A stretch of 64,000 bases of DNA, from contig CALRGC010000001.1 of assembly GCA_943357105.1 (NCBI GenBank), forward strand, positions 17,045 to 81,044, read 5' to 3'. The notes under the pieces are model-generated. The model was not told where the DNA came from, made no database searches, and saw nothing but the letters and a program-made list of their open reading frames with translations. Each line of letters begins with the position of its first letter. Position 1 is the first letter of the stretch. The position numbers and the translations under genes were made by a program. Source of the stretch: Candidatus Magasanikiibacteriota bacterium (GTDB lineage Bacteria > Patescibacteriota > Patescibacteriia > Magasanikbacterales > GWA2-37-8). Below are positions 3,763 through 40,797 of this stretch, in pieces.

Positions 3763-3784
3763 AGTGTGTTCAAGTATCACGCCT

Positions 3785-3950
3785 GAGAAGACATTTGGCA
3801 ATTTTTACCTGATAAAAGTTCGCATAATTGGCTATAAATTTTCGTTACGGCTCTAAGGGTAGAGCCGTTGCCCTGACGGGCACCACGAAAATTTACTTAC
3901 GCCAATTAGGGGCTCACTTTTATGCGGTAAAAATTGCCAAATGTCTTCTC
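3785..3950. repeat. Structured repeat family 1, copy 1: conserved ~130 bp core inside a 25-bp perfect copy-specific inverted repeat
   Basis: Terminal IR gagaagacatttggcaatttttacc / ggtaaaaattgccaaatgtcttctc; core is about 88% identical to 17006-17135; paired positions covary between the two copies. Confidence 0.8.
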
Positions 3951-5052
3951 AGTCTAGATTATTCTGGAATTGAGAAAACTGTTCGGTTACAAAATTTTTT
4001 ATTTCGTTTTTGAAACGGTCGGTAGAAAAATTTTGCGCGTGCGCGCGAATTTTGGCGCTGTCAAATGCGCTTGAGTCAAAATTCAGCAGTGTATGTAGTA
4101 GTGATTCCCAAGTTTGTTGTTCAAAAAATACTCCAGTTTCATTAGGCAAAACTGTTTCGGTAGCACCTCCCTGACTGTAAGCAATTACGGGGCGGCCAGC
4201 GGCCATGGCTTCGAGCGGAGTGATGCCAAAATCTTCTTTTTGGGGATGGATAAAGGCAATCGCTTCACTGAGAAGCTGAGCTTTTTCATCTTCGGAAATT
4301 TTTCCGTAAAATTCAATATTGGCCTTGGCGATTTTTTTCAGATAAGGATATTCTGATCCGATACCAAAAATTTTTAGCGGCCAACCCAGACGATTGAAAA
4401 CTTTTATTACTAAATCCAGGCGTTTGTATGGCACGAGGCGCCCACCGGCCACATAATAATTTCCTACTTTGGCCGCGGTTTGAAATCTATCGGTATCAAC
4501 CGGCGGAAAAATGACTTGACTGTCACGGCGATAATATTTATTGATGCGACGTTTTACCGTATTGGAATTGGCAATAAAATTATCTACGCGTTTAGTACTG
4601 AGTTGATCCCACAAACGCAAGCGATGAGTCAAAATTGGTAAGAAAATTTTTACCAGCCGATTATTTTTGAGATCCGACAGATAATTATTGCCGTCACCCC
4701 ACAAAAAACGCGGCGGGGTGTGACAATAGGCGATATGCAGAGTGTCGGTGGAGGTGATTATGCCCTTGGCAAACCCGGACGAAGAAGAAATAACCAGATC
4801 ATAGCCCTGGAGTTGGTGACGCTCGGTGGCTACAGGCATCAGTGGCAAATACCACTGGAAGATTTGATTGACAAAAGGCAAGCGATTGAGAAAAGAAGTA
4901 TGAATTTTATCCTGATCCAAATAATTTATTTTGTTGGCATCGTGAAATAAAACAAAAATTGGCGCGTCCGGCCAAATTTCGTGTAAGGCTTTGAGCACTC
5001 TCTCCGCCCCTCCATCTTGAGACAGATAGTCGTGAACTAGGGCGACCTTCAT
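3949..5052 (-). CDS. glycosyltransferase family 4
   Basis: 367 aa; N-terminal MKVALVHDYL; GT4-like; TGA stop at 3949-3951 overlaps the repeat IR. Confidence 0.75.
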   Translation of the reverse strand: MKVALVHDYLSQDGGAERVLKALHEIWPDAPIFVLFHDANKINYLDQDKIHTSFLNRLPFVNQIFQWYLPLMPVATERHQLQGYDLVISSSSGFAKGIITSTDTLHIAYCHTPPRFLWGDGNNYLSDLKNNRLVKIFLPILTHRLRLWDQLSTKRVDNFIANSNTVKRRINKYYRRDSQVIFPPVDTDRFQTAAKVGNYYVAGGRLVPYKRLDLVIKVFNRLGWPLKIFGIGSEYPYLKKIAKANIEFYGKISEDEKAQLLSEAIAFIHPQKEDFGITPLEAMAAGRPVIAYSQGGATETVLPNETGVFFEQQTWESLLHTLLNFDSSAFDSAKIRAHAQNFSTDRFKNEIKNFVTEQFSQFQNNLD

Positions 5053-6470
5053 ATGATGGATCCGGTTTTGCGCAAAACAATAAAAGGAGTTTTAATTAAA
5101 ATTACCAGATCGGTAAATAGGCTCCAATGTTCAATATAGAAAATATCCAGGCGCGCTTCTTCGTCAAAGCTCAGATTGCTACGTCCGGAAATCTGAGTAA
5201 TACCGGTGATGCCCGGTTTGATAGCCAGCACGGTTTTGTGCCATTTCTCATATTTGTTTACTTCGCGTTCCTGGTGAGGGCGCGGACCAACCAAACTCAT
5301 TTCACCCTTTAAAACATTATAAAATTGCGGAATTTCATCAATGCTCAATACACGAATAAAACGACCAAATGGGGTAATGCGCGGATCATTTTTTATTTTA
5401 TAAACCGGTCCTTTTTTTTCACTTTTTTCTTCAATTAATTTTTTTTCCAGTTTCAGCGCCTCTTGTCCGTTTTTACCAAACTGTTCGCCGGTGCAATATT
5501 TTTGGTACATTGAACGGAATTTGAGGGTAAGAAATTTTTTGCCTTCTTGCCCCACGCGTTCATTTTTATAAATAATCGGCGTTCCGGTTTCGAGCAAAAT
5601 TATTAACGAAGTAATCAAAAATATTGGCAGAAAAATTATCATTAAAAATAGACTGCCGACAATATCCACGGTGCGTTTGAGTATGCGACCCCAGCCACCC
5701 AGGCGGGTGCGACGCAATTCAATAATTGGAATGCCGGCAATCGTGGATACGGCCATATTGGAAGAAACGGTAGCGAAAAGGTCGGCCGAATATTTGAAAG
5801 TGATGTGGTGCTCGTTGGCAAAATCTATGGCTTGCAGAGCTTCATCTTCGTGACTCTTGGGATCGGTAAAAATAATTTCATCAATACCGGTTTTTTTCAA
5901 AGTTTTTAGTTGGTTTAAATTAAAATTAGGAATCTGTCCAATAATTTTATAACCAAAATGGGAATGTGAATCTAAAGTATTCAAAATTTGTTCTTCTATT
6001 TGGCCACTACCAATAATCACGGTGCGGCGCAGACCAAGCCCCAGGCGATAGCAGAGAATTTTTAGCAGTCGCCAAGCGATTCTGCCGGCATAAACATAGA
6101 TAATGGCAAAAATCCAACTAGCTAAAACCAAAAAGCGTGAATCAAATTTTTGGAAAGTAAAAAAGACATAAATTGTAATCGCGGCAAACCCAGTAGCACA
6201 GGCAAAAAAGACGCGATTGAGTTCGCTGGTGAGTTTGCGATTGGGATTGGCGCTGTATAACCCGGAAAAAGCGAAGATAACTATCCAGCCGCCCGCGACT
6301 ATAAGTGCCAATGGCCAATATTTTTCCCAAGGTAAATTAAAAATCACCGGACGAATGGCCGTAGTGATCTTGGCAAAACGCAAACTATAGGCCGTAAAGG
6401 CGGCCAATATCAGCATGAGATAATCTAGAGGTAGCTGTAAAAAAGTAAATGTAAGTTCAAAGCGTTTCAT
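5049..6470 (-). CDS. undecaprenyl-phosphate sugar phosphotransferase (WbaP/bacterial sugar transferase family)
   Basis: 473 aa; N-terminal TM helices; C-terminal sugar-transferase domain (LSIDEIPQFYNVLKGEMSLVGPRP); 4-nt overlap with the downstream GT gene. Confidence 0.8.
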   Translation of the reverse strand: MKRFELTFTFLQLPLDYLMLILAAFTAYSLRFAKITTAIRPVIFNLPWEKYWPLALIVAGGWIVIFAFSGLYSANPNRKLTSELNRVFFACATGFAAITIYVFFTFQKFDSRFLVLASWIFAIIYVYAGRIAWRLLKILCYRLGLGLRRTVIIGSGQIEEQILNTLDSHSHFGYKIIGQIPNFNLNQLKTLKKTGIDEIIFTDPKSHEDEALQAIDFANEHHITFKYSADLFATVSSNMAVSTIAGIPIIELRRTRLGGWGRILKRTVDIVGSLFLMIIFLPIFLITSLIILLETGTPIIYKNERVGQEGKKFLTLKFRSMYQKYCTGEQFGKNGQEALKLEKKLIEEKSEKKGPVYKIKNDPRITPFGRFIRVLSIDEIPQFYNVLKGEMSLVGPRPHQEREVNKYEKWHKTVLAIKPGITGITQISGRSNLSFDEEARLDIFYIEHWSLFTDLVILIKTPFIVLRKTGSII

Positions 6471-6529
6471 GCTCTATATTTTAAGGCAAAATGCCAATAT
6501 AGTCAATTTATTGACAAAAGTCGCATTTC

Positions 6530-6892
6530 GTGCAGAAGCTCGTCGGGGAGGCCATCCCCGCCGAAATGACCGTCGGCGGCGTCACCTATGAGATCCTCTC
6601 CTTCCACGAGGAAGGTGAAAACTCGGTCGGCGGCGGTGTCATGGTCGAGCGTTCCAAGACGCTCAACGCCCACCAGGGCAAAAAGGAGCGGGAACACCTT
6701 CTGGCCAACCAGGCCGACATTCCGGTGGCCTGCCGCGGCAGGACGGCTTTCGTCTTCACCGACGAAAGGCATCCTGACGTTCCCGACGAGGGCGTCTACT
6801 ATGTCTGCTGGCGCGACGGCCGCTGGGTCGAGGGCTGGGACTGGCTCGACGAAGACTGGGGTCGCGGCGACCGGGTGCTCCGTCGCAAGTAG
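6530..6892 (+). CDS. hypothetical protein encoded in a high-GC (~63%) island, probably foreign or a gene fragment
   Basis: GTG start; strong GC3 codon bias unlike its neighbours; antisense ORFs on the other strand are GC artefacts. Confidence 0.4.
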   Translation: MQKLVGEAIPAEMTVGGVTYEILSFHEEGENSVGGGVMVERSKTLNAHQGKKEREHLLANQADIPVACRGRTAFVFTDERHPDVPDEGVYYVCWRDGRWVEGWDWLDEDWGRGDRVLRRK

Positions 6893-7091
6893 CCCTAGGA
6901 TTCTGGGCACCTTGGTCCTCAAGGTCGCTTGGATCATCCTTCGGTTCACTTTGGTAATTGGCCCACATCAGTACGATCCTTCGGGATACGACTGGTGTGG
7001 GCGCTTCGTTTTTATGCTGGTTATGGTCTTAAAATAGGTTGACAAAAACACTTTTTGGATGTATGATAATAATATATAATTAGAAATAATT

Positions 7092-7328
7092 ATGCAAAAA
7101 AATAATTTACAATTTTCAGTTGTTTATCAACAAGATCTCGACGGTGGTTTTATTGCTACTGTTCCCGCTTTGCCTGGTTGCCATACTCAAGGAAAAGATT
7201 TATCTCAGACTACTTTTAGAATAAAAGAAGCGATAGATTTGTATTTGGAAAGTTTTAAATCTGAAAAATCTATTCGTCAGGCCGCACAAAAACAAATTTT
7301 ATTTGGAACGGTAATGATAGGTGGTTAG
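7092..7328 (+). CDS. hicB: HicB-family antitoxin
   Basis: 78 aa; HicB/UPF0150 N-terminal domain (FIATVPALPGCHTQGKDLSQ). Confidence 0.7.
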   Translation: MQKNNLQFSVVYQQDLDGGFIATVPALPGCHTQGKDLSQTTFRIKEAIDLYLESFKSEKSIRQAAQKQILFGTVMIGG

Positions 7329-7566
7329 TATGGTTAGCTTTAGTCAATTACCAAATCTAAAAGCAAAACAATTAGTGCGTGTTTTGGAAAAGATAGGTTT
7401 TGTGGTGGTCAGGCAAAAAGGCAGTCACGTTATTTTGGTTAATGAAAAAAGTAAACTGCGTACCGTTGTACCAGTGCACACAGGAGAAACAATTAGAAAA
7501 TCATTGTTGATGGAAATTATAAAACAAGTAAATTTAACGGTAGAGAATTTTTTGGAGTTGTTATAA
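7321..7566 (+). CDS. hicA: HicA-family mRNA interferase toxin
   Basis: 81 aa; KGSHVIL...VPVHTGETI motif; 8-nt overlap with hicB. Confidence 0.7.
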   Translation: MVSMVSFSQLPNLKAKQLVRVLEKIGFVVVRQKGSHVILVNEKSKLRTVVPVHTGETIRKSLLMEIIKQVNLTVENFLELL

Positions 7567-7579
7567 TTAGAAGTATATT

Positions 7580-7607
7580 CAAAATAGCCAAATAAGGCTA
7601 TTTTTTA
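7580..7607 (+). terminator. intrinsic terminator after hicA
   Basis: atagcc-aaataa-ggctat stem followed by a T-tract. Confidence 0.6.
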
Positions 7608-7660
7608 ATATCCAAGATTGACTTTTGCCCATAATTTAGATAAAATTAACCCATTAAAAT

Positions 7661-7960
7661 ATGCAATTAATAATCCTCGCTAGCCAAGTCAGTGATCCCG
7701 AACAGTTTATCCGCCGTTGTGGATATGGACAGCACCGCACGCGTACCGGTGAGACTAGTTATGTGAAGCGTGTGCATCGCGACTGGTATCCGCGTTTCCA
7801 TGTGTATGTGAAAAAACAGGGTGAAAATTTTGTTTTCAATCTGCATCTGGATCAGCGGGCGCCGGTATATGAAGGTCAGACCGCTCATGCCGGGGAATAT
7901 GACGGCGAAGTAGTAGAGCGAGAAATGGAAAGAATTAAAAGTTTTGTAGTAGCAGTATGA
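7661..7960 (+). CDS. hypothetical protein (99 aa) with a 4-nt overlap onto the adk start
   Basis: Non-repetitive ORF, slightly GC-elevated; ATGA overlap suggests translational coupling with adk. Confidence 0.4.
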   Translation: MQLIILASQVSDPEQFIRRCGYGQHRTRTGETSYVKRVHRDWYPRFHVYVKKQGENFVFNLHLDQRAPVYEGQTAHAGEYDGEVVEREMERIKSFVVAV

Positions 7961-8616
7961 AAAAAATATTAATATTTATTGGTCCACCAGGATCCGGCAA
8001 AGGCACTCAGGCCAAATTGTTGGCGCAAAAATACGGTTTTAAACATATTTCTACCGGTGATTTATTGCGCGCGCTTTCTGTGGATGCTAAAGCTAGCGCT
8101 GAACAGAAGACAGCTTTGGAAGAAATGAAAGCCGGTAAGCTCGTGCCTGATTGGTTGATCTATGAACTGGCTTTTGAGGCGGTGAAAGAAAATTTAGCAA
8201 GCGGTAAAGGCGTGGTACTCGATGGCGCGATTCGCAATGTTGAACAGGCCCAAAAATATCAAGATTTTTTTGAACAAAATGGTTGGAACGATGAAGTGGC
8301 GGTAATAGAAGTGGCCTTAAGTGACGAAGAAGCATTTAATCGCTTGACCAAGCGCCGTATTTGTAAAAATTGTGGTGAAATAATTCCCTATTTATCAGCT
8401 ACCAAAGATTTAGTTGATTGCCCTAAATGTGGTGGCAAATTAATTTATCGCCAAGATGATAAAAAAGAAATAATTGAAGCGCGTATTCGTGAACAAGGCA
8501 ACGAAGCCTTGAAGCCAATCGTGGATTTTTATGAAAAGTTGGGAATATTAAAAGTTTTGGACGGAAATCAAACTATTGAAAAAGTGAATGCTGAAATTTT
8601 TGCGTTATTTGAATAA
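7957..8616 (+). CDS. adk: adenylate kinase
   Basis: P-loop GPPGSGKGTQA; zinc lid CKNCG...CPKCG. Confidence 0.92.
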   Translation: MKKILIFIGPPGSGKGTQAKLLAQKYGFKHISTGDLLRALSVDAKASAEQKTALEEMKAGKLVPDWLIYELAFEAVKENLASGKGVVLDGAIRNVEQAQKYQDFFEQNGWNDEVAVIEVALSDEEAFNRLTKRRICKNCGEIIPYLSATKDLVDCPKCGGKLIYRQDDKKEIIEARIREQGNEALKPIVDFYEKLGILKVLDGNQTIEKVNAEIFALFE

Positions 8617-8625
8617 TTTTATCTT

Positions 8626-9438
8626 ATGGCCAACATTAAAACTCCAGCGGAAATAAAACAAATTATCACTGCCTGTAAATTGACCGGCGAGATTTTGGAA
8701 AAATTGCAAAAGTGGGTAAGGCCGGGAGTGAGTACTTTGGAAGTAGATGAATTGGCCGAAAAAATGATTCGTGATGCTGGTGGGCGCCCGGCTTTTAAAG
8801 GCTATACGACTGGTCCTGGTGATTCTCCATTTCCCAATACTATTTGTGCATCCGTAAATGAAGAGTTGGTGCACGCTATTGCCACCAAAGAAAAAGTTCT
8901 CAAAGACGGCGATATTTTTACGATTGATATTGGTATGCAATGGCCATTTAAAAAAGGTGAGCCGGGATATTTTACCGATACGGCCGTGACTTTTGTGGTG
9001 GGCAATAAAAAACCAACTGCGGAAATTCAGAAATTATTGGATGTGACGCGCGATTCGATGTATGCCGGTATCGCGGCGGCGGTGCCGGGTAATAGTGTGG
9101 CTGATATTGGTAAAGCGGTAGAAAATTATGTAAATTCCAAAGGCAAATATGGTATCGTGCGTGATTTGGTTGGGCACGGAGTAGGCCACGCGGTGCATGA
9201 AGATCCCAAGATTCCAAATTATTACGATCCAAAATTGGAAAAGATAAAACTCAAACCCGGGATGGTGATTGCGATTGAGCCGATGATTGCGCTGGGGACT
9301 TGGAAGGTGAAAATGCACGATGATGGGTGGACTATTTTGATGGCGGATAATTCGATGTGTGCGCATTTTGAGCATACGGTTGTCATTACTGAAACTGGGA
9401 ATATTGTGGCGACTCAGCGGCCTAGTGAGAAGATTTAA
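8626..9438 (+). CDS. map: methionine aminopeptidase type I
   Basis: 270 aa; conserved D/H/E metal ligands; conserved adk-map order. Confidence 0.9.
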   Translation: MANIKTPAEIKQIITACKLTGEILEKLQKWVRPGVSTLEVDELAEKMIRDAGGRPAFKGYTTGPGDSPFPNTICASVNEELVHAIATKEKVLKDGDIFTIDIGMQWPFKKGEPGYFTDTAVTFVVGNKKPTAEIQKLLDVTRDSMYAGIAAAVPGNSVADIGKAVENYVNSKGKYGIVRDLVGHGVGHAVHEDPKIPNYYDPKLEKIKLKPGMVIAIEPMIALGTWKVKMHDDGWTILMADNSMCAHFEHTVVITETGNIVATQRPSEKI

Positions 9439-9476
9439 ATTTATCATTTCATAAATATTTTAATCTCTCTCGCCTG

Positions 9477-9596
9477 TGAAAATTCTCGGATAATTTGCAA
9501 CTCACTCCGGCTCTGGCCATGAACTCGTCGCTCGGCTCCTCAAACAGCAGGGCCAGCCACGCCTGCGTGACTCACAAATTATTTCCGAGAATTTTC
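9477..9596. repeat. Structured repeat family 2, copy A: GC-rich ~75 bp core flanked by a ~21 bp AT-rich inverted repeat
   Basis: IR tgaaaattctcggataatttg / caaattatttccgagaattttca; core matches the reverse complement of 63669-63747 at about 80% identity. Confidence 0.7.
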
Positions 9597-9597
9597 A

Positions 9598-10017
9598 ATG
9601 GCTCGTTCGATTAAAATATTTATTCCATTTTTATATATGAATATCCTTGCTATTGATTTTGGAACGAAAAATATTGGCCTGGCCTGGAGCGATACCGGGA
9701 TTGGGGTGGTGTTTCCGTTTGGGGTGATTAAGAATGAGGATAAGAATAAAGCTAAAAAAGAATTGCTCGATTTTATTAAAAAAGAACACGCGGAAAAATT
9801 GGTAGTGGGTCTGCCGCTTTCTCTGGATGGCGCGGAAAATAAAAACACTGAGCGTATTCGGGAATTTGTTGCAGATTTAAAAACCGATATCAAAGTAGAA
9901 TTTTTTGACGAGCGGTTTTCATCGGCGCAGGCGGATCGCTCCGAGGGTGGGGTGAGTCGCGATGAAAAATCGGCCATGATAATTTTGGAGGGATATTTGC
10001 ACAAGCTAAAAAAATAA
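9598..10017 (+). CDS. ruvX: Holliday-junction resolvase-like nuclease YqgF/RuvX
   Basis: 139 aa; N-terminal ILAIDFGTKNIGLA motif. Confidence 0.8.
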   Translation: MARSIKIFIPFLYMNILAIDFGTKNIGLAWSDTGIGVVFPFGVIKNEDKNKAKKELLDFIKKEHAEKLVVGLPLSLDGAENKNTERIREFVADLKTDIKVEFFDERFSSAQADRSEGGVSRDEKSAMIILEGYLHKLKK

Positions 10018-10020
10018 AGC

Positions 10021-10728
10021 ATGTATTCCTTTGTTCTCAAGCGTTCTGATTTGCGTGAGCAGGACCAAATAGTGACCCTGTATACTTTGGAAAAAGGCAA
10101 AGTGGACGCTTTGGCGCGCGGGGTAAAAAAAATACTTAGCAAAAACTCGGCCTATCTGTTGCCGGTTTTTTTGATTGATGCCGAAGTGTTGTCCGGCAAA
10201 GAAGTAAATCATCTTACCAAGGCTGTGCCGGTATTTGTCTATAAAAATATTTTGGAGGATTTGAGTAAAATGAGTTTATTGCAAACGGTTTTCAAATGGG
10301 TAAATATTTTGACCAAGTACGAGCGCGAACCAAAAATTTTTCTTTTGATAAAAAGTTGGTTGGAATTTTTGGATGCTACGGATAAAGTGGAAACGGCTTT
10401 GGCGTATGGATTTCTGGGAAATATTTTAACGCATTTGGGGTTTGCGCCTGAGCTCGACAATTGTATTTTTTGTCAGAATAAAAATAATTTAGTGGCTTTT
10501 TATCCGGCCGGTGGCGGGGTGGTTTGTAAAAATTGTTTTTTGCTCAAGAGGCAGGCGGACAATAAAATTTATCCACTTCGAGCCATAGATTTACAGGCTA
10601 TGAGCTTGCTTTTCGCCAGTAATTGGCAAAAAATTCTGAGTCATAATACCGAGATTGCCAATCGGTTGGTATTTTTATATGGGCAATATCACAGTGAGCG
10701 AAAGTTGAATAAAATTAAACTTTTTTAG
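10021..10728 (+). CDS. recO: DNA repair protein RecO
   Basis: 235 aa; OB-fold N-terminus; C-terminal zinc motif CIFCQ...CKNC. Confidence 0.75.
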   Translation: MYSFVLKRSDLREQDQIVTLYTLEKGKVDALARGVKKILSKNSAYLLPVFLIDAEVLSGKEVNHLTKAVPVFVYKNILEDLSKMSLLQTVFKWVNILTKYEREPKIFLLIKSWLEFLDATDKVETALAYGFLGNILTHLGFAPELDNCIFCQNKNNLVAFYPAGGGVVCKNCFLLKRQADNKIYPLRAIDLQAMSLLFASNWQKILSHNTEIANRLVFLYGQYHSERKLNKIKLF

Positions 10729-10783
10729 TCAGTGGAGTGTGTTTTTATAAGTTATAATTATTTACTTTAAATTAAAATTATTG

Positions 10784-10803
10784 TAAACTATGTTCATAGT
10801 TTA
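10784..10803. promoter_or_regulatory. 20-bp near-perfect palindrome (taaactatg-tt-catagttta) immediately upstream of fic; operator-like
   Basis: aaactatg / catagttt inverted repeat with a 2-nt spacer, 10 bp before the fic ATG. Confidence 0.4.
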
Positions 10804-10812
10804 TTGAATTTT

Positions 10813-11901
10813 ATGCAACCGTATATTCCAGAGTCCCTGCCACTCAAAGAGTTAAATTGGGATAAGTATGTTTCTCTGATAGGCAAAGCTAATGCAGAAG
10901 TAGCCAGATTTGATGGTTTGCTACAAGGAATGCCAAATCCAGAAGTTTTGTTGTCGCCTCTTACTATGCAAGAAGCGGTTTTATCTTCCAAAATTGAAGG
11001 TACTATGGCATCTTTAAAGGATGTTTTAGAGTTTGAAGCTGATCCGCAAAAGAAAACAGAAAAATATGATGATATTCAAGAAGTTTTAAATTATAGAAAG
11101 GCAATGCGTTTTTCAGTAAAGGAAATGGAAACCCTGCCTCTGGTTAATAGGCTTATAAAAAATGTACATTCAATATTATTAGACAGTGTTCGCGGACAAA
11201 ATAAACAACCGGGTAGTTTTCGTAGTGGTCAAGTACATATTGGTAAACCAGGGAGTACCCTGGAAACCGCCACGTATGTTCCTCCTGTTCCAAATACAGT
11301 ATCGGATTGTATGAATAATTTGGAAAAGTATTTTCATTATGATGAAAAAGATTTTTTAGTCCAACTGGCCATCATTCATGGACAATTTGAAATTATTCAT
11401 CCGTTTTGGGACGGGAACGGTCGTATTGGTAGAATATTATTACCATTATTTTTATATTACAAAAAAGTTTTATCTACACCAATGTTCTATTTGAGCGCCT
11501 ATTTTGAATCTCACAGAGAAGAATACTATGATAAATTATTACATGTATCCAAGGATAAAGATTGGGATAGTTGGATTATTTATTTTTTACAAGCAATTAT
11601 AGAACAGTCACGAATAAATATAAAAAAGGCTACCGCAATCCATGCTCTGTATGATTCAAAAAAAGAAGAAATAATGAATCTTACCAACTCAAAGTACGCT
11701 ATTAAAACTTTAGATTTTATTTTTAGCTATCCTATTTTTAATAGCACCAATTTTATTAAAACATCCAAAATACCAAAACCTAGTGCTATGAGGGCTTTGT
11801 CGGCTTTAGAGAAAGGTGGTTTATTGAAGAAGATTCATGGTGGTTCCGGTAGAAAACCAGCCACCTATGTATTTGCTAAGTTGTTATCCATAGTTGGGTA
11901 G
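10813..11901 (+). CDS. fic: Fic/Doc family protein (AMPylase-type)
   Basis: Canonical Fic motif HPFWDGNGRIGR; ATG at 10813 preferred over TTG at 10804. Confidence 0.85.
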   Translation: MQPYIPESLPLKELNWDKYVSLIGKANAEVARFDGLLQGMPNPEVLLSPLTMQEAVLSSKIEGTMASLKDVLEFEADPQKKTEKYDDIQEVLNYRKAMRFSVKEMETLPLVNRLIKNVHSILLDSVRGQNKQPGSFRSGQVHIGKPGSTLETATYVPPVPNTVSDCMNNLEKYFHYDEKDFLVQLAIIHGQFEIIHPFWDGNGRIGRILLPLFLYYKKVLSTPMFYLSAYFESHREEYYDKLLHVSKDKDWDSWIIYFLQAIIEQSRINIKKATAIHALYDSKKEEIMNLTNSKYAIKTLDFIFSYPIFNSTNFIKTSKIPKPSAMRALSALEKGGLLKKIHGGSGRKPATYVFAKLLSIVG

Positions 11902-11919
11902 TAGTGTATCATGTAATCA

Positions 11920-11997
11920 ACACTAAATATCTTGTGTATCAAATATTGAAATAAATGACACACTAAATATCTTGTGTATCAAATGGCATATTTAGTA
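11920..11997. repeat. Two 25-bp direct repeats (acactaaatatcttgtgtatcaaat) 40 bp apart, plus inverted half-sites (atatttagt)
   Basis: Exact 25-mer at 11920-11944 and 11960-11984; reverse-complement half-sites at 11988-12010. Confidence 0.7.
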
Positions 11998-12175
11998 TCT
12001 TAGTGGCTATATTTAGCCATTATTTTATTTGAGTTGAGAATTAGAGGACAACAGGAAGTTCGTTTAATTTATACATTCCATAGTAATAAAGCTATAGTTT
12101 TGCACGGATTTTTGAAAAAGTCTCAAAAGATTCCGCAAAAGGAAATTGCTATAGCACAGAAAAAATTATTTTTAC

Positions 12176-12210
12176 TTGACATGGTATAACATATATGTTA
12201 TATTAAATAT
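12176..12210 (+). promoter_or_regulatory. promoter TTGACA-17-TATATT upstream of the XRE gene
   Basis: ttgacatggtataacatatatgttatatt. Confidence 0.5.
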
Positions 12211-12212
12211 GT

Positions 12213-12488
12213 ATGAAATTATATACCAAAATTAAAAGTCAACTTCTTAAAGATAAGCTAACTCGTAAGGCCTATAAAGACCTGGGTGTGGAATTTATGT
12301 TAGCACAAATGGTAATCGAGAAACGCCTTGCCAAGGGATTTACTCAAGCCACTTTGGCCCATAAATTAGGCACTAAGCAGTCCGCAATCGCGAGGCTTGA
12401 ATCTGGTAATTATAACCCGTCCCTAGCCTTTATGGAAAAAATTGCTAAGGCGCTAGATACAAAATTGAAAATTTCTCTAGTAAAATAA
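12213..12488 (+). CDS. XRE-family helix-turn-helix transcriptional regulator
   Basis: 91 aa; HTH LAQMVIEKRLAKGFTQATLAHKLGTKQSAIARLESG. Confidence 0.8.
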   Translation: MKLYTKIKSQLLKDKLTRKAYKDLGVEFMLAQMVIEKRLAKGFTQATLAHKLGTKQSAIARLESGNYNPSLAFMEKIAKALDTKLKISLVK

Positions 12489-12600
12489 TGACCATCAGGG
12501 TCGTTATTTTTATAATAATCAGTACCTTGCCTTTTTTAGCTTAATTTGATAAGATTTACCTGTTTTAGATTCCCGTTTTCACGGGAATGACAATATAAAT

Positions 12601-13893
12601 ATGAATATCCTTATTAAAGAAATTTCCAAACATGTCGGCGAGACCGTGACTATCAAAGGCTGGCTCTACAACAAACGCAGTAGCGGGCCAATCGCCTTCC
12701 TGGAATTGCGTGATGGTTTTGGGTTTGTGCAGGGTGTGGCGGTGCAAAACACTCTGGCTCCGGAAGTGTGGCAGGCTTGTGAAGATGTGACTCAGGAGTC
12801 GTCTATTGAAGTGTCCGGTGAAGTCACCAAACATCCAAAAAAAGAAAATGTTTTTGAATTGCAGATAAAAGATTTTAAGATTTTGCAAAAGGCCGTGGAT
12901 TATCCGATAGCGCACAAAGAGCATGGTCCGGATTTTCTCATGGACAATCGTCATCTGTGGCTACGTAGCAAACGCCAGTGGGCGATTTTGCGCGTGCGTG
13001 ACGCGGTGATTATGGCGATCAATGAATATTTGCATCAGCAGAATTTTATCAAGACCGATTCACCGGTTTTCACGCCCAATGCTTGTGAAGGTACGACCAC
13101 ACTTTTTGCCGTGCCATATTTTGATCTGGGCGAAGCGTTTCTTTCTCAGTCCGGTCAGCTCTATATTGAGGCGGCGATTGCGTCGGTGGGCCGCTGTTAT
13201 GATTTTGGTCCGGTGTTTCGCGCGGAAAAAAGTAAGACCAAACGCCATCTCACTGAATTTTGGATGATGGATGCCGAGGGCGCGTTTGTGGAACATGAAG
13301 AAAATTTGAAAATTCAAGAAGGTTTGGTGCGTCATATTGTGCGCTATTGTTTGGAACATTGTATGGAGGAACTCATTATCTTGGAACGCAATATTGAAAA
13401 TCTCAAAAAAGCCGACGCTCCGTTTACGTGCTATACTTATGATGAAGCGATAGTAAAATTAAACGCGATGGGTAGCGATATTAAATATGGTGAAGATTTG
13501 GGCAATGATGATGAAGGACTGCTGACCAAAGATTCGGAAGTGCCGGTCTTTATCGAAAAATGGCCAAAGAGTATTAAACCATTTTATATGAAACGATCGG
13601 CGGAAAATCCAGATTTGGTTTACAATGATGATTTGATTGCTACTGAAGGTGGCGGTGAATTGATCGGTGGTAGTCAGCGTGAAGATGATATTGAATTATT
13701 GATTGCTTGCATCAAAGCCGAAGGACTAAATGAAGCGGACTATAGCTGGTATACAGATCTGCGCAAATATGGCAGTGTGCCACATTCCGGATTTGGTATT
13801 GGGCTAGAGCGCGCGGTGCGCTGGATCACCGGTGTGGAGCATATTCGCGAATGTATTCCGTTCCCACGTACCATCAGCAGATTGAAACCATAA
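12601..13893 (+). CDS. asnS: class IIb aminoacyl-tRNA synthetase, asparaginyl (or archaeal-type aspartyl)-tRNA ligase
   Basis: 430 aa; N-terminal OB anticodon-binding domain; class II motifs (FRAE, GSQRE, GFGIGLER). Confidence 0.8.
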   Translation: MNILIKEISKHVGETVTIKGWLYNKRSSGPIAFLELRDGFGFVQGVAVQNTLAPEVWQACEDVTQESSIEVSGEVTKHPKKENVFELQIKDFKILQKAVDYPIAHKEHGPDFLMDNRHLWLRSKRQWAILRVRDAVIMAINEYLHQQNFIKTDSPVFTPNACEGTTTLFAVPYFDLGEAFLSQSGQLYIEAAIASVGRCYDFGPVFRAEKSKTKRHLTEFWMMDAEGAFVEHEENLKIQEGLVRHIVRYCLEHCMEELIILERNIENLKKADAPFTCYTYDEAIVKLNAMGSDIKYGEDLGNDDEGLLTKDSEVPVFIEKWPKSIKPFYMKRSAENPDLVYNDDLIATEGGGELIGGSQREDDIELLIACIKAEGLNEADYSWYTDLRKYGSVPHSGFGIGLERAVRWITGVEHIRECIPFPRTISRLKP

Positions 13894-13902
13894 AATTAAA
13901 AT

Positions 13903-13940
13903 AAAAAATCACTCGATTATTTCGGGTGATTTTATTTTTT
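13903..13940 (+). terminator. intrinsic terminator after asnS
   Basis: atcactcga-ttatt-tcgggtgat stem followed by a T-tract. Confidence 0.7.
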
Positions 13941-14100
13941 ACCTTTTCGTCCTGAAAAAATATTTTGGACTCATCAGTGACAGCGTTACTGTCAGAAGGT
14001 GTGGAGAATGGGCAGTCATTCTCCGGCCCCCTTTTTGTTTTTTAACTTTACCTCCTGGTTAGTTATTATTTTTTGACGTATCGCTCTGCCGGCGATCGTC

Positions 14101-14481
14101 TTACTGATCCAACTGATCGCAACTCACCGTGATCAAACGGTGTTGGTCGAATTGAGTCCCGCCGCTGAGATCGTAGTTGAGGCTGAGTTGGTTGAGGATC
14201 ACGAGGTGCTCTCTTGGTCCCTGAGAAAAAACCGTTTCACCGGCTTGCTTGGTGCATGGGGAGAAGAAGCGCCCAGGCGTCCCATTGATATTGGGACAGG
14301 ATTGCTCCAAGATCGTATGTTGAGCGGTGACGCCTTTGGCGATACCGATCGCATTGATATCACGGAGCTTCAGACCAGCAGTTTCGCACCGTCGTACCAA
14401 TTCGCTTTCGGTGATGCACTCCAGAGCCAGTTTGTTCAGATCTGCCTTGTTCATTGTTTCCTTGTCGTCCGTTTTGCCCAC
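14101..14481 (-). CDS. hypothetical protein in a GC-elevated (~50%) segment; strand and start uncertain
   Basis: 126-aa ORF with GTG start; internal ATG has an AAGGA RBS; an overlapping plus-strand ORF 14140-14541 is equally possible. Confidence 0.3.
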   Translation of the reverse strand: MGKTDDKETMNKADLNKLALECITESELVRRCETAGLKLRDINAIGIAKGVTAQHTILEQSCPNINGTPGRFFSPCTKQAGETVFSQGPREHLVILNQLSLNYDLSGGTQFDQHRLITVSCDQLDQ

Positions 14482-14609
14482 GGAACCGGGGAAAGAGCGT
14501 TGCTGAAATTAGGCCTCAGCCGACTGTCTACTCTAAAATAGATAATCGGTTAGTGTCTAACTTATGGCAGATAATATCTTCTATTTTTATGTTTGTCAAC
14601 CCTGTTCGT

Positions 14610-15182
14610 TTATTCTTTTTTTAGCGAGATTTTTTTAATAAATTTTTTAGTTTGTTTTGTTATTCTAATAGTGTATTTATCCGCATTTTTTGTTTTTATT
14701 TTATACAAATTAGCCTTAAAATTTAACCGAGCGATCATTTTTAAAACTTCATCGGCTAATTTCGGTATTATTGTTACAAAATTTACCATTATATATCCTC
14801 GATCGGAATAAATGGATCCGTCGGTTTCTATTAGTCCGCGCAGACATTCAATAGAAAATTTTTTATTATTCAATATCCATTTTGGTATTTTAATATTTTG
14901 TTTATGTTTCGGCCCATTATTTGCTTTCCAGCCAAGCAATTTTTCCCATTGATTGGAATAACAGCTGATATCGCAACAATTTTGTTTTCTGGTGACTATA
15001 GAAATTTTATTTTTAGACATTATTTCTCGTATAACTTCAATAATCCTTTGTCGCAATTTAGGATATTTATTATCACAAGTAATCCGTAGTCGTACGGCGC
15101 GTCCGTTGGGATTAGAAAGATTACCGTCGCCAATGGCGAGGCCTATTAGATAAGCTAGTTTACCCCTCCTAGTTTGAAGCAT
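14610..15182 (-). CDS. LAGLIDADG-family homing endonuclease (two motifs), free-standing, starting 3 nt after tRNA-Leu
   Basis: Motifs LIGLAIGDGNL and LRGLIETDGSI; the annotated ORF extension to 15242 overlaps the tRNA, so the internal ATG at 15182 was chosen. Confidence 0.7.
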   Translation of the reverse strand: MLQTRRGKLAYLIGLAIGDGNLSNPNGRAVRLRITCDNKYPKLRQRIIEVIREIMSKNKISIVTRKQNCCDISCYSNQWEKLLGWKANNGPKHKQNIKIPKWILNNKKFSIECLRGLIETDGSIYSDRGYIMVNFVTIIPKLADEVLKMIARLNFKANLYKIKTKNADKYTIRITKQTKKFIKKISLKKE

Positions 15183-15185
15183 ATT

Positions 15186-15270
15186 TGGTGCCGATGGTGG
15201 GACTTGAACCCACAAACCCGAAGGCACATGATTTTGAGTCATGCATGTTTACCAATTTCATCACATCGGC
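15186..15270 (-). tRNA. tRNA-Leu (anticodon CAA), long variable arm, CCA encoded
   Basis: Cloverleaf: acceptor GCCGATG/CATCGGC; anticodon loop CTCAAAA; T-loop GGTTCAAGTCC. Confidence 0.8.
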
Positions 15271-15325
15271 GCGGTTGCAACTCAATATTGCCAGCTAATT
15301 ATAGTAAATCTTTTGTTTTTTGTCA

Positions 15326-15352
15326 ACCTTATGATATAATATTGCTACTAAT
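15326..15352 (+). promoter_or_regulatory. promoter TTGTCA-15-TATAAT for parA
   Basis: ttgtcaaccttatgatataat. Confidence 0.5.
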
Positions 15353-15358
15353 AATTTT

Positions 15359-16126
15359 ATGTCTGTAGTGATCTCTGTAGTCAACCAAAAAGGCGGAGTG
15401 GGTAAGACTACTTCGGCCGTAAATCTCGCGGCCGGTCTCGCGGAAGCGGGTAAATTTGTGCTCCTTGTCGACCTAGATCCGCAGGGAAATGCCACTTCGG
15501 GACTGGGAATAAAATATCGTGAGCTGGCCAGTGGGCTCTATAATGCGCTGATGGGTCAGGCGCGCGTGCATGATGTGATTGCCAATACTTTGCATACCGG
15601 ATTGCGCGTGGTGCCAGCTACCGCCGACTTGGCAGGCGCCAATGTGGAGTTGGTGAGCGTGGATGGTCGGGAGCGCAAGCTGTCGGATCTGCTCGCTGAG
15701 GTGCGACATGCCTATGATTATGTGATTATTGATTGTCCGCCATCGCTTGGTATTCTTACGCTCAATGGTTTGGTGGCGGCGGACTACATCCTTATTCCAG
15801 TACAAGCCGAATATTACGCGCTCGAAGGTTTGGAACAACTTTTGAAAACTGTAGATTTGGTTCGTGAAAATATTAAGCCGGAATTAAATGTGCTGGGCGC
15901 GATTCTCACCATGTTTGATAGCCGCAATAAACTATCCGAAGAAGTAATGGGTGAACTATATAAATTTTTTCCAAATAATATTTTTCGTTCGGTCATTCCC
16001 CGCACCGTCCGACTGGCTGAAGCGCCCAGTTATGGAAAAAGTATTTTTCACTACGAACCAAAAGGCAAAGGCGCGAAAGCGTATGAGCGCCTCACGCGCG
16101 AAATTTTAGATTTATTTGAAAAATAA
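15359..16126 (+). CDS. parA: chromosome partitioning ATPase ParA/Soj
   Basis: Deviant Walker A KGGVGKTT. Confidence 0.9.
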   Translation: MSVVISVVNQKGGVGKTTSAVNLAAGLAEAGKFVLLVDLDPQGNATSGLGIKYRELASGLYNALMGQARVHDVIANTLHTGLRVVPATADLAGANVELVSVDGRERKLSDLLAEVRHAYDYVIIDCPPSLGILTLNGLVAADYILIPVQAEYYALEGLEQLLKTVDLVRENIKPELNVLGAILTMFDSRNKLSEEVMGELYKFFPNNIFRSVIPRTVRLAEAPSYGKSIFHYEPKGKGAKAYERLTREILDLFEK

Positions 16127-16976
16127 TATGTCATTAGGACGAGGATTAGGCGCGCTTATAACGCCCACCGGAAAAAATAATTCAGTCAGTGTCAGTGCCG
16201 ATGAAGGTAAAGTTTGGTTTATACCGCTGAGCAAAGTGACGGCTGATCCCAATCAGCCGCGTAAAAAATTTAATCAAGAGGAATTAAATCAATTAGCCGC
16301 GTCAATAAAAGAGCATGGCGTGCTTCAACCGATTTTGGTAGTAGAAAAAAACGACGGTGGTTATGAGTTGGTGGCTGGTGAACGCCGCTGGCGTGCTTCG
16401 CACATCGCGGGCATGACCACAATTCCGGCTTTAATTAAAAAATTGGCCGATCAACAAAAAGTAGAAATTTCTTTGATTGAAAATATTCAGCGCCAAGATT
16501 TGGATCCGATCGAAGAAGCCTTTGCGTATAAAAGATTGATGGAAGAATTTAATCTCACTCAGCAACAGGTGGCGGATAAAGTTGGCAAGAGTCGTCCGGC
16601 GGTGGCCAACGCGGTGCGATTGTTGGATTTACCGGTAGAGGTGCAGGCGGCTTTGGTAGAGAGGAAGATAAATTCTGGTCAGGCGCGTGCCTTGTTGGCT
16701 TTATCGACTGAAAAAGAACAGCTAGATATGCTCGCCTCGATGATGGGAGAAAAAATCACCGTGCGTGAGATTGAGCGTGAAGCCAACAAACAAAAAGTTT
16801 TGCATCATCGGCCGATTCGCAAAGATGCCAATCTGTTATTTTTGGAAGATAAATTGCGGGCGGAGTTTGGGACAAAAGTTAATATTACTCAAAAGGGGGA
16901 TAGAGGGACCGTCGTGATTGATTATTATTCGCAGGAGGAATTGAAGCGGGTGATTAAAAAATTACTTGGTGAATAA
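16116..16976 (+). CDS. parB: chromosome partitioning protein ParB/Spo0J
   Basis: ParB box GERRWRA; HTH. Confidence 0.9.
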   Translation: MKNNMSLGRGLGALITPTGKNNSVSVSADEGKVWFIPLSKVTADPNQPRKKFNQEELNQLAASIKEHGVLQPILVVEKNDGGYELVAGERRWRASHIAGMTTIPALIKKLADQQKVEISLIENIQRQDLDPIEEAFAYKRLMEEFNLTQQQVADKVGKSRPAVANAVRLLDLPVEVQAALVERKINSGQARALLALSTEKEQLDMLASMMGEKITVREIEREANKQKVLHHRPIRKDANLLFLEDKLRAEFGTKVNITQKGDRGTVVIDYYSQEELKRVIKKLLGE

Positions 16977-16987
16977 ATTTTTAAAAT

Positions 16988-17152
16988 AAAAAAGACTTTG
17001 GATTTTTTACCTGATAAAAGTTCGCATAATTGGCTATAAATTTTCGTTATGGCCCTAAGGGTAGGGCCATTGGCCTTACGGCCACCACTCAAATTTACTT
17101 AACGCCAATTAGGGGCTCACTTTTATGCGGTAAAAAATCCAAAGTCTTTTTT
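16988..17152. repeat. Structured repeat family 1, copy 2, between convergent parB and tsaD
   Basis: IR aaaaaagactttggattttttacc / ggtaaaaaatccaaagtctttttt; core about 88% identical to copy 1 with compensatory changes; A-tract and T-tract flanks. Confidence 0.8.
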
Positions 17153-17155
17153 ATT

Positions 17156-18235
17156 TTAAAAATTGAGGTGCCAATTTGGGTCTGCCTTTATATCCTCCCA
17201 TTTTGTATAATTATTCTTTTGGGCTTGGTAATATCCGGCCACGGCAATCATCGCGCCGTTATCCATGCAGTATTTTAATTCTGGGCAGAGGAATTTTGTG
17301 TCTGGGAAATTGTCGGTAATATTTTTTTGTAAACATTCCCGTAGTTTTTTATTGGCGCTGACGCCGCCAGCCAGCACCAAAGTTTTTGGTTTTATTTTTT
17401 CTACGGCCTTGAGAGTTTTATAGGCCAACACATCTACTATCGACTGTTCAAAGCTGGCGCAGAAATCTTCGCGGGTGATTGGGTCACCGGAGATACCTAG
17501 TCGGCTTGGCAACCAAGAAAAAATTTTTCCAATTCCAGTAGGATTTACAGCAGCTAGTTTATGATCCCGTAGCCAATACAGTGCGGCGGTTTTTAATCCG
17601 GAAAAAGAAAATTCAAAATTATTTTCTTTGATCATCGGACGCGGTAAATTTATCGCGTCAGTTTTGCCATTCATCGCCAGTTTGGAAATTTGAGGACCAC
17701 CGGGATAGGGAATATCCAATAATTTAGCGACTTTATCAAAACATTCACCAGCGGCATCATCTTTGGTGGCGCCGAGCACTTTATAACTTCCCGGTTCATT
17801 AATTTGGACTATTTCAGTATGACCTCCGCTCACGACTAGAGCAATCGCGGGATATTCGATTTTTTGTCCCGGCGTTAATTCCACCGAATATACATGACCC
17901 TGGAGATGATTGGTCGCAATAAGTGGGATGTTCCAGACCATAGATAAAGTGCGAGCGGCTTCCACGCCCACAATCAATCCGGTGATTAAGCCAGGTCCAG
18001 CCGTGACCGCGATGGCGTCAGGTTTCGGTTGGTCTTTGAGAATTTCTTCAATCAGTGGAATAATTTTTTCGGCATGCATGCGTCCGGCGATTTCCGGCAC
18101 TACACCGCCGTATTTTTTATGCACATCAATTTGCGAAGCAGTTTTTTCGGATAACACAACACAGCCTTGTTCACTACAATCTAGTAGTGCTACGGAAGTA
18201 TCATCACAAGATGATTCAATGCCAAGTATAATCAT
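17156..18235 (-). CDS. tsaD: tRNA N6-adenosine threonylcarbamoyltransferase TsaD
   Basis: 359 aa; Kae1/TsaD family (MIILGIESSCDDTSVALL). Confidence 0.9.
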   Translation of the reverse strand: MIILGIESSCDDTSVALLDCSEQGCVVLSEKTASQIDVHKKYGGVVPEIAGRMHAEKIIPLIEEILKDQPKPDAIAVTAGPGLITGLIVGVEAARTLSMVWNIPLIATNHLQGHVYSVELTPGQKIEYPAIALVVSGGHTEIVQINEPGSYKVLGATKDDAAGECFDKVAKLLDIPYPGGPQISKLAMNGKTDAINLPRPMIKENNFEFSFSGLKTAALYWLRDHKLAAVNPTGIGKIFSWLPSRLGISGDPITREDFCASFEQSIVDVLAYKTLKAVEKIKPKTLVLAGGVSANKKLRECLQKNITDNFPDTKFLCPELKYCMDNGAMIAVAGYYQAQKNNYTKWEDIKADPNWHLNF

Positions 18236-27866: not shown

Positions 27867-28412
27867 ATGTGTAACAAAATGAGTGCGATGTCTTGCGTAC
27901 ATGGCAAGATGAAGGATTTTGGTCTTTTGGCTTTGCGCCTGGCTTTGGGCGTGATTTTTATCTATGCCGGTTATGAAAAACTTGGTCCTGGTCATGCTAT
28001 GGCTGTTGGAATGTTTGGTAAGATGATTGGTCCAGAATCAGCCGGTGCTTTTTGGGCATATTTTGTCGGTTTGGCTGAATTTGTCGGTGGTTTGATGGTA
28101 TTGCTGGGTGTTTTTGCTACTTATGCTTCAGCTTGGTTGTCGGTAATTATGGTGGTAGCACTAGTATTATTGGCCAGAACTGGCGGTGGCTTCATGAATT
28201 TATTTACTCCGATCGCTGTTTTGGGTGGTACTTTAGCTTTATTGGGTTCTGGTGCCGGCAGTTACCGTTTGGTACAATGTGAATGTCATTGTCCAAAATG
28301 CAAAGCAATGTGTGGTGATGGACAGTGTGAACCAAAAGCCGCAATGTCACCAATGGATGTAAAATCGATGGGTGGATGCTGTGGATCAGGCAACTGCGGA
28401 GATAAAAAATAG
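27867..28412 (+). CDS. DoxX-family membrane protein with a Cys-rich C-terminal tail
   Basis: DoxX TM core followed by CECHCPKCKAMCGDGQCEP...GGCCGSGNCGDKK. Confidence 0.6.
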   Translation: MCNKMSAMSCVHGKMKDFGLLALRLALGVIFIYAGYEKLGPGHAMAVGMFGKMIGPESAGAFWAYFVGLAEFVGGLMVLLGVFATYASAWLSVIMVVALVLLARTGGGFMNLFTPIAVLGGTLALLGSGAGSYRLVQCECHCPKCKAMCGDGQCEPKAAMSPMDVKSMGGCCGSGNCGDKK

Positions 28413-28424
28413 AAAACTAAAAAC

Positions 28425-28466
28425 AAAAACACCTCGGAAAAAATTTCGAGGTGTTTTTAATTTTCT
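28425..28466. terminator. bidirectional terminator between the convergent doxX-like and ABC-F genes
   Basis: acacctcg...cgaggtgt stem between A- and T-tracts. Confidence 0.65.
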
Positions 28467-35430: not shown

Positions 35431-35533
35431 GTAACAGGGAGGCAAATTACTTTTGAGCGGGTTATGAGGCCAAGCCTCATCCTTTCGCCCTCGCGGGCGA
35501 AAAAAGCGAAAAAGTCATTTGCCTCACTGTTAC
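35431..35533. repeat. Structured repeat family 3, copy 1: ~57 bp GC-rich core with two short hairpins inside a copy-specific ~24-bp inverted repeat
   Basis: Core gagcgggttatgaggccaagcctcatcctttcgccctcgcgggcgaaaaaagcgaaaa is identical in 47331-47388; flanks gtaacagggaggcaaattactttt / aaaagtcatttgcctcactgttac. Confidence 0.75.
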
Positions 35534-40751: not shown

Positions 40752-40759
40752 AATTAAAA

Positions 40760-40797
40760 TAAAAAACACTCGAATATTCGAGTGTTTTTTATTTTTT
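40760..40797 (+). terminator. intrinsic terminator after trxA
   Basis: acactcgaatattcgagtgt palindrome plus T-tract. Confidence 0.7.

Follow-up and report, generated by a model that had tools for sequence, protein, structure and literature searches.

A dispersed palindromic repeat of a few related Patescibacteria that may be nested at the apexes of terminator hairpins

ERIC/IRU sequences are imperfect palindromes of about 127 bp in Enterobacteria, and the conservation of ERIC copies at orthologous loci exceeds that of neutral DNA. An RNA role alongside DNA-level mobility has been proposed for ERIC and REP elements. Some larger elements use palindromes as targets: IS1397 and ISKpn1 insert into the loops of REP/BIME palindromes, IS110/IS1111 elements insert into REP or attC hairpins, and class C group II introns insert beside terminators. 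The Patescibacteria, or candidate phyla radiation (CPR), have tiny genomes and are thought to be poor in mobile DNA, and to our knowledge small palindromic repeats have not been described in them, our literature searches on the topic having been without result. ERIC-type and MITE-like bacterial repeats (MITE, miniature inverted-repeat transposable element) have been reviewed (PMC3184786, PMC10969869), and REPINs are built of two conserved ends, the REPs, around a variable spacer (PMC3116915). Here we describe F1, a ~130-nt repeat that occurs twice in a 64,000-nt window, i.e., the whole stretch that we analyzed, of a Candidatus Magasanikiibacteriota genome (assembly GCA_943357105.1, contig CALRGC010000001.1, positions 17,045 to 81,044 of the forward strand). 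We read F1, with a probability of about 60%, as a non-autonomous palindromic repeat of the MITE/ERIC/REPIN-like kind that is nested at hairpin apexes and kept at the DNA level.

A preliminary description, made from the sequence of the window, had reported two copies of a structured element, and both are present where it placed them. The composite palindrome of copy A, i.e., arms and core together, occupies 3783-3952 with its core at 3803-3932 (plus strand; covariance model score 161.8 bits), and that of copy B occupies 16976-17164 with its core at 17005-17135 (plus strand; 159 bits). Orthologues of the two composites lie in a related metagenome-assembled genome (MAG) at L012:4122-4296 and L010:4934-5122, respectively. 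Both cores are ~130 nt long and run from TTTTACC to GGTAAAA, and their 30-32-nt ends occur twice each in the window, with 0 occurrences expected from 100 shuffles. The cores differ in 12 of ~144 aligned columns, so that the core identity is ~92%, and the figure of about 88% originally given for the core is that of a 200-nt alignment with flanks. Each composite is predicted to fold into a single long hairpin, at -93 kcal/mol (z = -15) for copy A and -84.5 kcal/mol (z = -12) for copy B.

Beyond TTTTACC, the inverted arms are perfect over 20 nt in copy A and 29 nt in copy B, or over 27 and 36 nt if the shared TTTTACC is counted. The left arm of copy A (CTGAGAAGACATTTGGCAAT, 3783-3802) is the perfect complement of its right arm (ATTGCCAAATGTCTTCTCAG, 3933-3952), and the arms of copy B are AATTTTTAAAATAAAAAAGACTTTGGATT (16976-17004), which consists of a bidirectional-terminator A-tract and stem, and AATCCAAAGTCTTTTTTATTTTAAAAATT (17136-17164). 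The arms were thus correctly described as perfect inverted repeats, but they are not wholly unrelated between the copies, as had been thought, since AAGACATTTGG of copy A partially resembles AAGAC-TTTGG of copy B. As for gene context, copy A lies between two GT4 glycosyltransferase (GT) genes of the minus strand, in a polysaccharide setting, and copy B between convergent parB (plus strand) and tsaD (minus strand), as first noted. Stop codons fall within the arms: the right arm of copy A holds the TGA stop of the upstream GT gene, GT1, in minus-strand reading, while the left arm of copy B starts within the parB stop codon and its right arm includes the last two codons and the stop codon of tsaD.

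Open reading frames (ORFs) of 61 and 82 codons (3828-4013 and 17030-17278) begin within the two cores, which raises the possibility of the element encoding a small protein (MAINFRYG...). The frames part after a 1-nt indel, both ORFs run on into unrelated flanks antisense to real genes, and the differences between copies A and B are located at base-paired positions. We therefore reject a coding role, to which the preliminary description had likewise given no credence, and assign it next to no probability.

To find other copies, an exact search with one 18-mer of the core was made over 185,579 species representatives. It retrieved 12 further copies, all on a single 464-kb contig of the related MAG, CAYHBZ010000002 (loci L004-L015). 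Two more were found in a JGI metagenome (L027 and L034) and a partial one in a Logan contig (L019), and a metagenome scan with a degenerate pattern for F1 and a second family, F2, gave 15 matches, 2 of them real. F1 has at least 16 copies, 13 full and 3 partial, at 12 distinct loci beside unrelated housekeeping genes, and its distribution is that of a narrow clade comprising a few related Patescibacteria genomes. The presence of F1 in independent ENA, NCBI, JGI, and Logan assemblies rules out an assembly artefact. Six Logan contigs carrying tsaD end exactly at the element, as expected because F1 is a repeat. By its TsaD and DnaE homologues, the window genome belongs to the Patescibacteria, close to Magasanikbacteria. 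The MAG record, CAYHBZ010000002.1, is titled 'uncultured Gammaproteobacteria bacterium', a label that appears wrong given that its genes are 84-95% protein-identical to those of the window.

Searches for relatives of F1 beyond these copies returned little. Our own covariance model together with nhmmer found no extra or decayed F1 copies over 244 kb, only weak structural matches on F2 and a third family, F3. Scanning the whole window against Rfam release 15 at the gathering score detected RNase P and tRNAs only, and E-value scans of both copies gave only far-sub-threshold plant microRNA-precursor hairpins and other noise, in agreement with the preliminary description, which could not match the element to a known RNA family. 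No match to F1 was found in phage and plasmid collections, and two scans of viral contigs turned up no instance of the gapped F1 pattern and a single chance match within a coding region. Inspection of the sequence for parS or DnaA box motifs revealed none. A tRNA-like element was also considered, as hairpin H1 of the core resembles a tRNA D-arm at 12 of 16 positions, yet the tRNA model gave no match.

The consensus structure of the core is an imperfect five-helix rod (P1-P5) with conserved internal loops and, at its tip, a three-way junction carrying two hairpins, H1 and H2. In copy A, these are ACGGCTC-TAAGGGTA-GAGCCGT (H1, 3847-3868, plus strand) and TGCCC-TGAC-GGGCA (H2, 3869-3882, plus strand). 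The conserved ends of the core, TTTTTACC and GGTAAAAA, are inverted repeats. In the 13 full copies, the leftmost 46 nt and the rightmost ~40 nt of the core never vary, and all differences fall in the H1 stem, H2, and a short patch 3' of H2. The H1 loop is the same in all copies, and the H1 stem exists in two linked states in which pairs 49:68 and 53:64 switch together without intermediates. H2 is 12-19 nt long and occurs in several sequence versions, all of them paired. The compensatory changes originally pointed out between the window copies, CGGCTC..GAGCCG against TGGCCC..GGGCCA in H1 and GCCC..GGGC against GGCC..GGCC in H2, are both real, and the description of the element as structured, repeated, and covarying extends to the further copies in related genomes. 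Overall, 99.7% of cells are paired and four pairs covary (18 cells), with a covariation score above all 500 shuffles. Over 51 pairs and 13 copies, G-U pairs and one-sided changes are entirely absent. Folding is equally good for the plus strand, the minus strand, and single-stranded DNA. Copy A has a unique 2-nt change, TC to GA, and a stem longer by two pairs; judged from the sequence, this is the kind of change that hairpin-templated mutation or synthesis would produce.

Empty-site hairpins of the kind that the preliminary description had in view do exist in related genomes, in the form of plain terminators at orthologous sites. Between the DoxX and ABC genes, the window has an ordinary bidirectional terminator, AAAAACACCTCGG-AAAAAATT-TCGAGGTGTTTTT (28404-28473), and the outgroup L021 a plain terminator as well, whereas in the MAG (L007:3079-3279) this same stem, ACCTCGG, holds an F1 core at its apex. 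Between miaA and the DUF11 gene, the window genome (L042) has a plain 15-bp terminator, AAAAAAATACCTCTA-G-TAGAGG..., and the MAG (L015) has F1 within AAAAAAATACC...GGTATTTTTTT. The parB-tsaD site is the most varied. F1 is present there in the window, in the MAG, and in L019; L016 (92% TsaD identity) instead has a different nested core, F3, inside a shared outer arm, AAAATAAAAAAGAC; L039 (92%) and L021 (76%) have plain terminators; and L040 (89%) has no spacer at all. The best explanation for the outer arms, and one that the preliminary description had not considered, is that they are stems of local terminator hairpins, with the core nested in the apex.

The arms themselves are exceptionally regular. 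Around each core, they form perfect locus-specific repeats of 20-44 bp, and over the 13 copies only 2 mismatches occur in a total of 379 bp of arm. Of the 238 pairs at positions 4-20 from the core, 236 are Watson-Crick and one is G.T, and a single position can show as many as five pair types. Filled arms as a whole have two G.T pairs in ~400 bp, and reading of the empty terminators found a G.T pair in four of eight. Where orthologous arms can be compared, 9 of 22 positions differ between copy A and L012 and 3 of 29 between copy B and L010, every one of them compensated. Arms usually consist of an A-tract, CACC, TACC, or GAC, and a few bases, followed on the other side by the mirror image ending in a T-tract. 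The terminator form, i.e., A-tract, GC-containing stem, and T-tract, is found in the arms of 9-10 of 14 copies, as at empty sites. The arms of copy B, L005, L007-L011, L014, and L015 look like intrinsic terminators, as do the empty sites, while those of copy A, L012, L006, and L004 have no T-tract and do not. A simple terminator scanner made no call on the composite because the loop is too long. At DoxX/ABC and miaA, filled arms are perfect over 31-36 bp, and their empty orthologues over 12-15 bp with indels or mismatches farther out. We also looked for free-standing palindromes ('F4') consisting of a non-terminator arm without a core, and the data contain none.

Three further observations concern terminators and promoters near these elements. 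The long H2 variant, GTCCCGACTAAGTCGGGAC (e.g., in L005, L008, L009, and L015), has approximately the same stem as free-standing terminators of the form AATCCCGACT.AGTCGGGATT at L007:1711-1749, L011:3598-3625, and L043:2378-2410, a likeness that suggests an exchange of sequence between the element's tip and terminator hairpins. The trx-dnaE terminator of the window (40756-40795) is a gap-free perfect 40-bp palindrome, AAAATAAAAAACACTCGAAT|ATTCGAGTGTTTTTTATTTT, whose center, AAT|ATT, is the residue to be expected from exact excision of an F1 core; an excision footprint is nevertheless unsupported, as the relatives L043 and L044 have ordinary terminators with wobble pairs. Lastly, promoter and terminator scans gave no excess over shuffles save for weak promoter-like matches at copy A. 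A promoter-like match just upstream of the downstream GT gene (3773-3801, minus strand) consists of TTGCCA, located in copy A's right arm, and GATACT, separated from it by a spacer of 17 nt. The 16-nt sequence GCGTGATACTTGAACA is the same in the orthologue L012 despite the diverged arms, and the GT genes of the outgroup overlap instead.

In comparison with its surroundings, the core is strikingly conserved. Between the window genome and the MAG, identity at the four-fold sites of parB, tsaD, and the two GT genes is only 38-53%, which places neutral sites close to saturation, yet the two genomes have identical core halves. The core halves of the JGI copies are ~94% identical to those of the window and MAG cores, and the genes flanking the JGI copies are 76-79% identical. 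Judged from these alignments, the F1 core is conserved far beyond neutral DNA. Orthologous copies nonetheless bear different H1/H2 subtypes, and the subtypes are mosaic, a pattern that points to copies swapping or renewing their cores through conversion or re-insertion.

The genes on either side are convergent at eight copies, co-directional at three, and divergent at one (L004). The co-directional copies occur in both orientations, with copy A and L012 antisense to transcription and L006 sense. L013 of the MAG and L034 of the JGI metagenome have the same flanks but carry both F1 and F3 in opposite orientations. By local skew, 10 of the 12 MAG copies are co-oriented with the G-rich strand (two-sided binomial p ~0.04), among them L014, at which skew and orientation are both flipped.

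F1 agrees with a MITE in being short, non-coding, multi-copy, and dispersed and in showing insertion polymorphism between related genomes. In keeping with this, the possibility raised at the outset that the element might be an insertion sequence (IS) or MITE terminus stands as far as its behavior as a dispersed, polymorphic repeat is concerned, and finds no match in any named IS or MITE. The ERIC-type repeats (ERIC/IRU, Correia, RUP, bcr1, and YPAL) resemble F1 in their ~130-nt size and imperfect rod-like palindrome, in their dispersed copies lying in transcribed intergenic DNA in either orientation and present or absent at orthologous loci, and in having neither coding capacity nor a visible adjacent transposase. 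F1 differs in its CPR host, in the lack of any TA or other target duplication that we could find, and in a core placed at a host-hairpin dyad, with 20-44 bp of perfect, locus-specific arms around it; the likeness is architectural only, and the Rfam, phage, and plasmid searches gave no match. The REPINs and REP/BIME elements served by RAYT (TnpA-REP) are, like F1, hairpin-forming, non-autonomous, extragenic repeats with compensatory stem changes that are found at gene 3' ends and between convergent genes, and mobilization in trans by a single-copy enzyme is plausible for F1 as well (PMC3116915). In contrast to a REPIN, which has two inverted REPs with a GTAG motif as conserved ends around a variable spacer, F1 has an invariant center, variable ends, and no GTAG/REP motif. 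Compared with IS200/IS605-derived PATEs, which have like subterminal hairpins at either end, make no target duplication, and are oriented with replication, the H1 and H2 hairpins of F1 are central and dissimilar, and the co-orientation of 10 of 12 copies with the G-rich strand is accompanied by inversion at one orthologous site. The palindrome-targeting ISs and introns share with F1 a hairpin or terminator target and the host-derived inverted repeats that come to flank the insert, but they are autonomous, 1-2 kb long, and code for a protein or intron RNA, while F1 is 130 nt long and non-coding, and no full-length cognate with the same end was found. Set beside ordinary intrinsic bidirectional terminators, F1 has as its 'loop' a 130-nt conserved structured insert, and its stems are about twice the empty-site length and wobble-free. 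What is new relative to ERIC, MITE, and REPIN elements is the apex nesting, a conservation pattern the reverse of that of REPINs, the absence of a recognizable target duplication, and the absence of sequence kinship in the Rfam, phage, and plasmid searches.

Under our preferred reading of F1 as a palindromic repeat nested at hairpin apexes, the ~130-nt core would sit at the dyad center of a hairpin, mostly a pre-existing bidirectional terminator between convergent genes. As a self-complementary rod, the core would let the host stem close and would leave the flanking A- and T-tracts in place. With stem and tracts preserved, insertion would be nearly harmless to termination, and filled sites would presumably retain terminator function. 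The outer arms would mostly be host terminator stems, part of which would have come with the element at hairpin-free sites. Their perfection would likely be due to intramolecular recombination or template switching between the arms across the 130-nt spacer, a mechanism that we infer because it would homogenize the arms, allow them to lengthen, and flip the core, and would explain the perfect complementarity, the compensated divergence, and the absence of wobble intermediates together. The core sequence, in turn, would be constrained by whatever recognizes it. As to how F1 might move, the weak G-rich-strand bias only hints at a single-stranded-DNA route.

Several results weigh against this reading. 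Annotation with Pfam revealed no transposase or other mobilizing gene in ~84 kb of the window genome (10-kb extensions included) or beside the copies in twelve 8-kb blocks of the MAG, and no RAYT gene was found in the same sequence. No longer element with the same 3' end was found in the MAG, where all 12 matches to the 3' end have a 5' end at the distance of the short element except one that is truncated where the contig stops. We could not define a target-site duplication, since the palindromic flanks make a direct duplication unrecognizable. The hairpin-free sites are the chief weakness of a model that relies purely on pre-existing hairpins. At the GT1/GT2 site, the genes of the outgroup L021 overlap (ATGA) without a hairpin, and therefore no terminator pre-existed there; where F2 separates the peptidase M24 gene from ruvX in the window, three relatives have a gap of only 2-18 nt. 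Arms are moreover alike at unrelated loci, L006 with L012 and copy A, and L011 with L015. From these sites and these alike arms, it follows that part of the arm can arrive with the core or be made on arrival. Finally, ~86 nt of the core are near-fully conserved despite saturated synonymous sites, which is stronger than expected for a purely selfish MITE and leaves room for a host-level RNA or DNA function.

This last point bears most directly on the possibility that F1 is a host-selected cis-acting RNA module, with selection acting on the transcript; it would lengthen the hairpin of the terminator or 3' UTR and might, for example, stabilize mRNA, provide an entry site for RNase III or RNase Y, or make bidirectional termination stronger. 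An RNA gene or motif had been implied by the preliminary description, and such a module could coexist with DNA mobility. The identity of the core halves beside four-fold sites of only 38-53% identity, the invariance of the unpaired internal loops and H1 loop, the covarying stems, the location of nearly all copies in transcribed 3' regions, and the absence of decayed relics over the 244 kb searched would all be in keeping with it. However, selection on a transcript does not fit the complete lack of G-U pairs among 612 core cells and their near absence (G.T in 1 of 238) among arm pairs, nor a structure that is equal on both strands. The element also takes both orientations relative to transcription, is inverted at orthologous sites, has a copy (L004) between divergent genes, and is missing from the same loci of close relatives; short-read assemblies break at it, and Rfam holds no match. 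We therefore see no support for the implied RNA gene, and we consider an RNA module unlikely, though not negligible.

The two other alternatives concern the origin of the arms and the mode of movement. Instead of being host stems, the arms might be made by the element, either carried as long, fast-evolving terminal inverted repeats or generated by inverted copying of one flank, with the terminator look being secondary. This would account for the GT1/GT2 and M24/ruvX sites, which are hairpin-free in outgroups and now have perfect 15-22-bp arms, and for the alike arms at unrelated loci (L006 GCCCGGAGATATTTGATAAT and L012 GCCGGATAAGATGTCTAATAAT; L011 and L015 at 24 of 25 positions), and it agrees with such arms never occurring without a core and with filled arms having about twice the stem length of empty orthologous terminators. 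We nevertheless think it decidedly improbable, given that at DoxX/ABC (ACCTCGG) and miaA (AAAAAAATACC) the core-adjacent stem is the same as in the empty relative and the outgroup, that F1 and F3 share the outer arm AAAATAAAAAAGAC at parB-tsaD, and that L011 and L015 have the same arms with different core subtypes. A longer shot still is a single-stranded-DNA route in which an HUH/Y1 enzyme acting in trans, of either the IS200/IS605 (PATE) or the RAYT (REPIN) type, would recognize H1 and H2 and insert the element into hairpin loops at the replication fork. Here the strand bias of the MAG copies, L014 included, an undetectable target duplication, a loop as target, and hairpins with invariant loops within the element recall REPIN and IS608 biology as described (PMC3116915, PMC6006769). 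But no such gene was seen in the part of each genome that was read, H1 and H2 are dissimilar and lie ~45 nt from either end, unlike IS608 ends, a GTAG-type REP motif is absent, and conservation of the ends around a variable middle, as in REPINs, is the reverse of the F1 pattern. The bias itself comes from 12 copies and local skew only, and flips at orthologous sites blur the strand rule.

Two further repeat families have the architecture of F1. F2 has a core of ~145 nt and copies at 9451-9623, at 63609-63805 in reverse orientation, and at L004:7410-7587, in which variable but perfect arms enclose a rod with a branched, GC-rich tip. The copy at 9451-9623 is an insertion between the peptidase M24 gene and ruvX that is absent from three relatives, with a doubtful, imperfect 18-19-nt duplication of the spacer. 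F3 has a core of ~70-77 nt, TACTTTTGAGCGGG...GCGAAAAAGT, and copies at 47307-47411, 35432-35532, L016:10239-10369, L013:4853-4951, and L034:1008-1081, in which a rod and two GC hairpins lie within perfect locus-specific arms. It is a tentative possibility, and one to which we give a minor share of belief, that CPR bacteria contain an undescribed class of 'hairpin-apex nesting' elements, of which F1, F2, and F3 would be members with unrelated cores but one architecture, a rod with a two-hairpin tip. Such elements would be inserted at terminator dyads by dedicated structure-recognizing machinery, and flip-flop recombination of the arms would keep the arms perfect and invert the core.

Some observations outside these families are worth recording. 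At trx-dnaE, the relative L043 (2400-2853; 90% DnaE identity) has a spacer of 488 nt compared to ~90, with a 40-codon ORF called on the minus strand, and this may be another inserted element. The RNase J gene of the window (47430-49268, minus strand) has one in-frame stop (...NNIEIA*ELGYMKF...) that splits the beta-CASP domain over two ORFs and could be due to a pseudogene, a recoding event, or a sequencing error. The IF-2 gene, infB (38416-40399), is broken into the ORFs 38416-39960 and 39917-40399, which overlap and lie in different frames, owing to a frameshift or an assembly error; in the relative L044, IF-2 is intact at 672 aa. A LAGLIDADG homing-endonuclease-like ORF (14610-15242) abuts or overlaps a tRNA gene (15189-15270), both within 14610-15270 on the minus strand, and a similar ORF adjoins parA in the relatives L001 and L039.

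In practical terms, repeats of the F1 type break short-read MAG assemblies and draw spurious ORF calls. F1 also offers a natural test case of the DNA-level upkeep of perfect inverted repeats, as 12 of 12 differences between orthologous arms are compensated and no intermediates are seen. If the hairpin-apex class is real, the conserved core might serve the host, e.g., as a reinforced bidirectional terminator or an orientation switch, and either a host function or a new structure-specific insertion mechanism would, if true, raise the interest of these elements. For the biology of the Patescibacteria, F1 illustrates a way for a repeat to survive in a highly compact genome, namely in the loop of a terminator hairpin, where insertion would be nearly silent.

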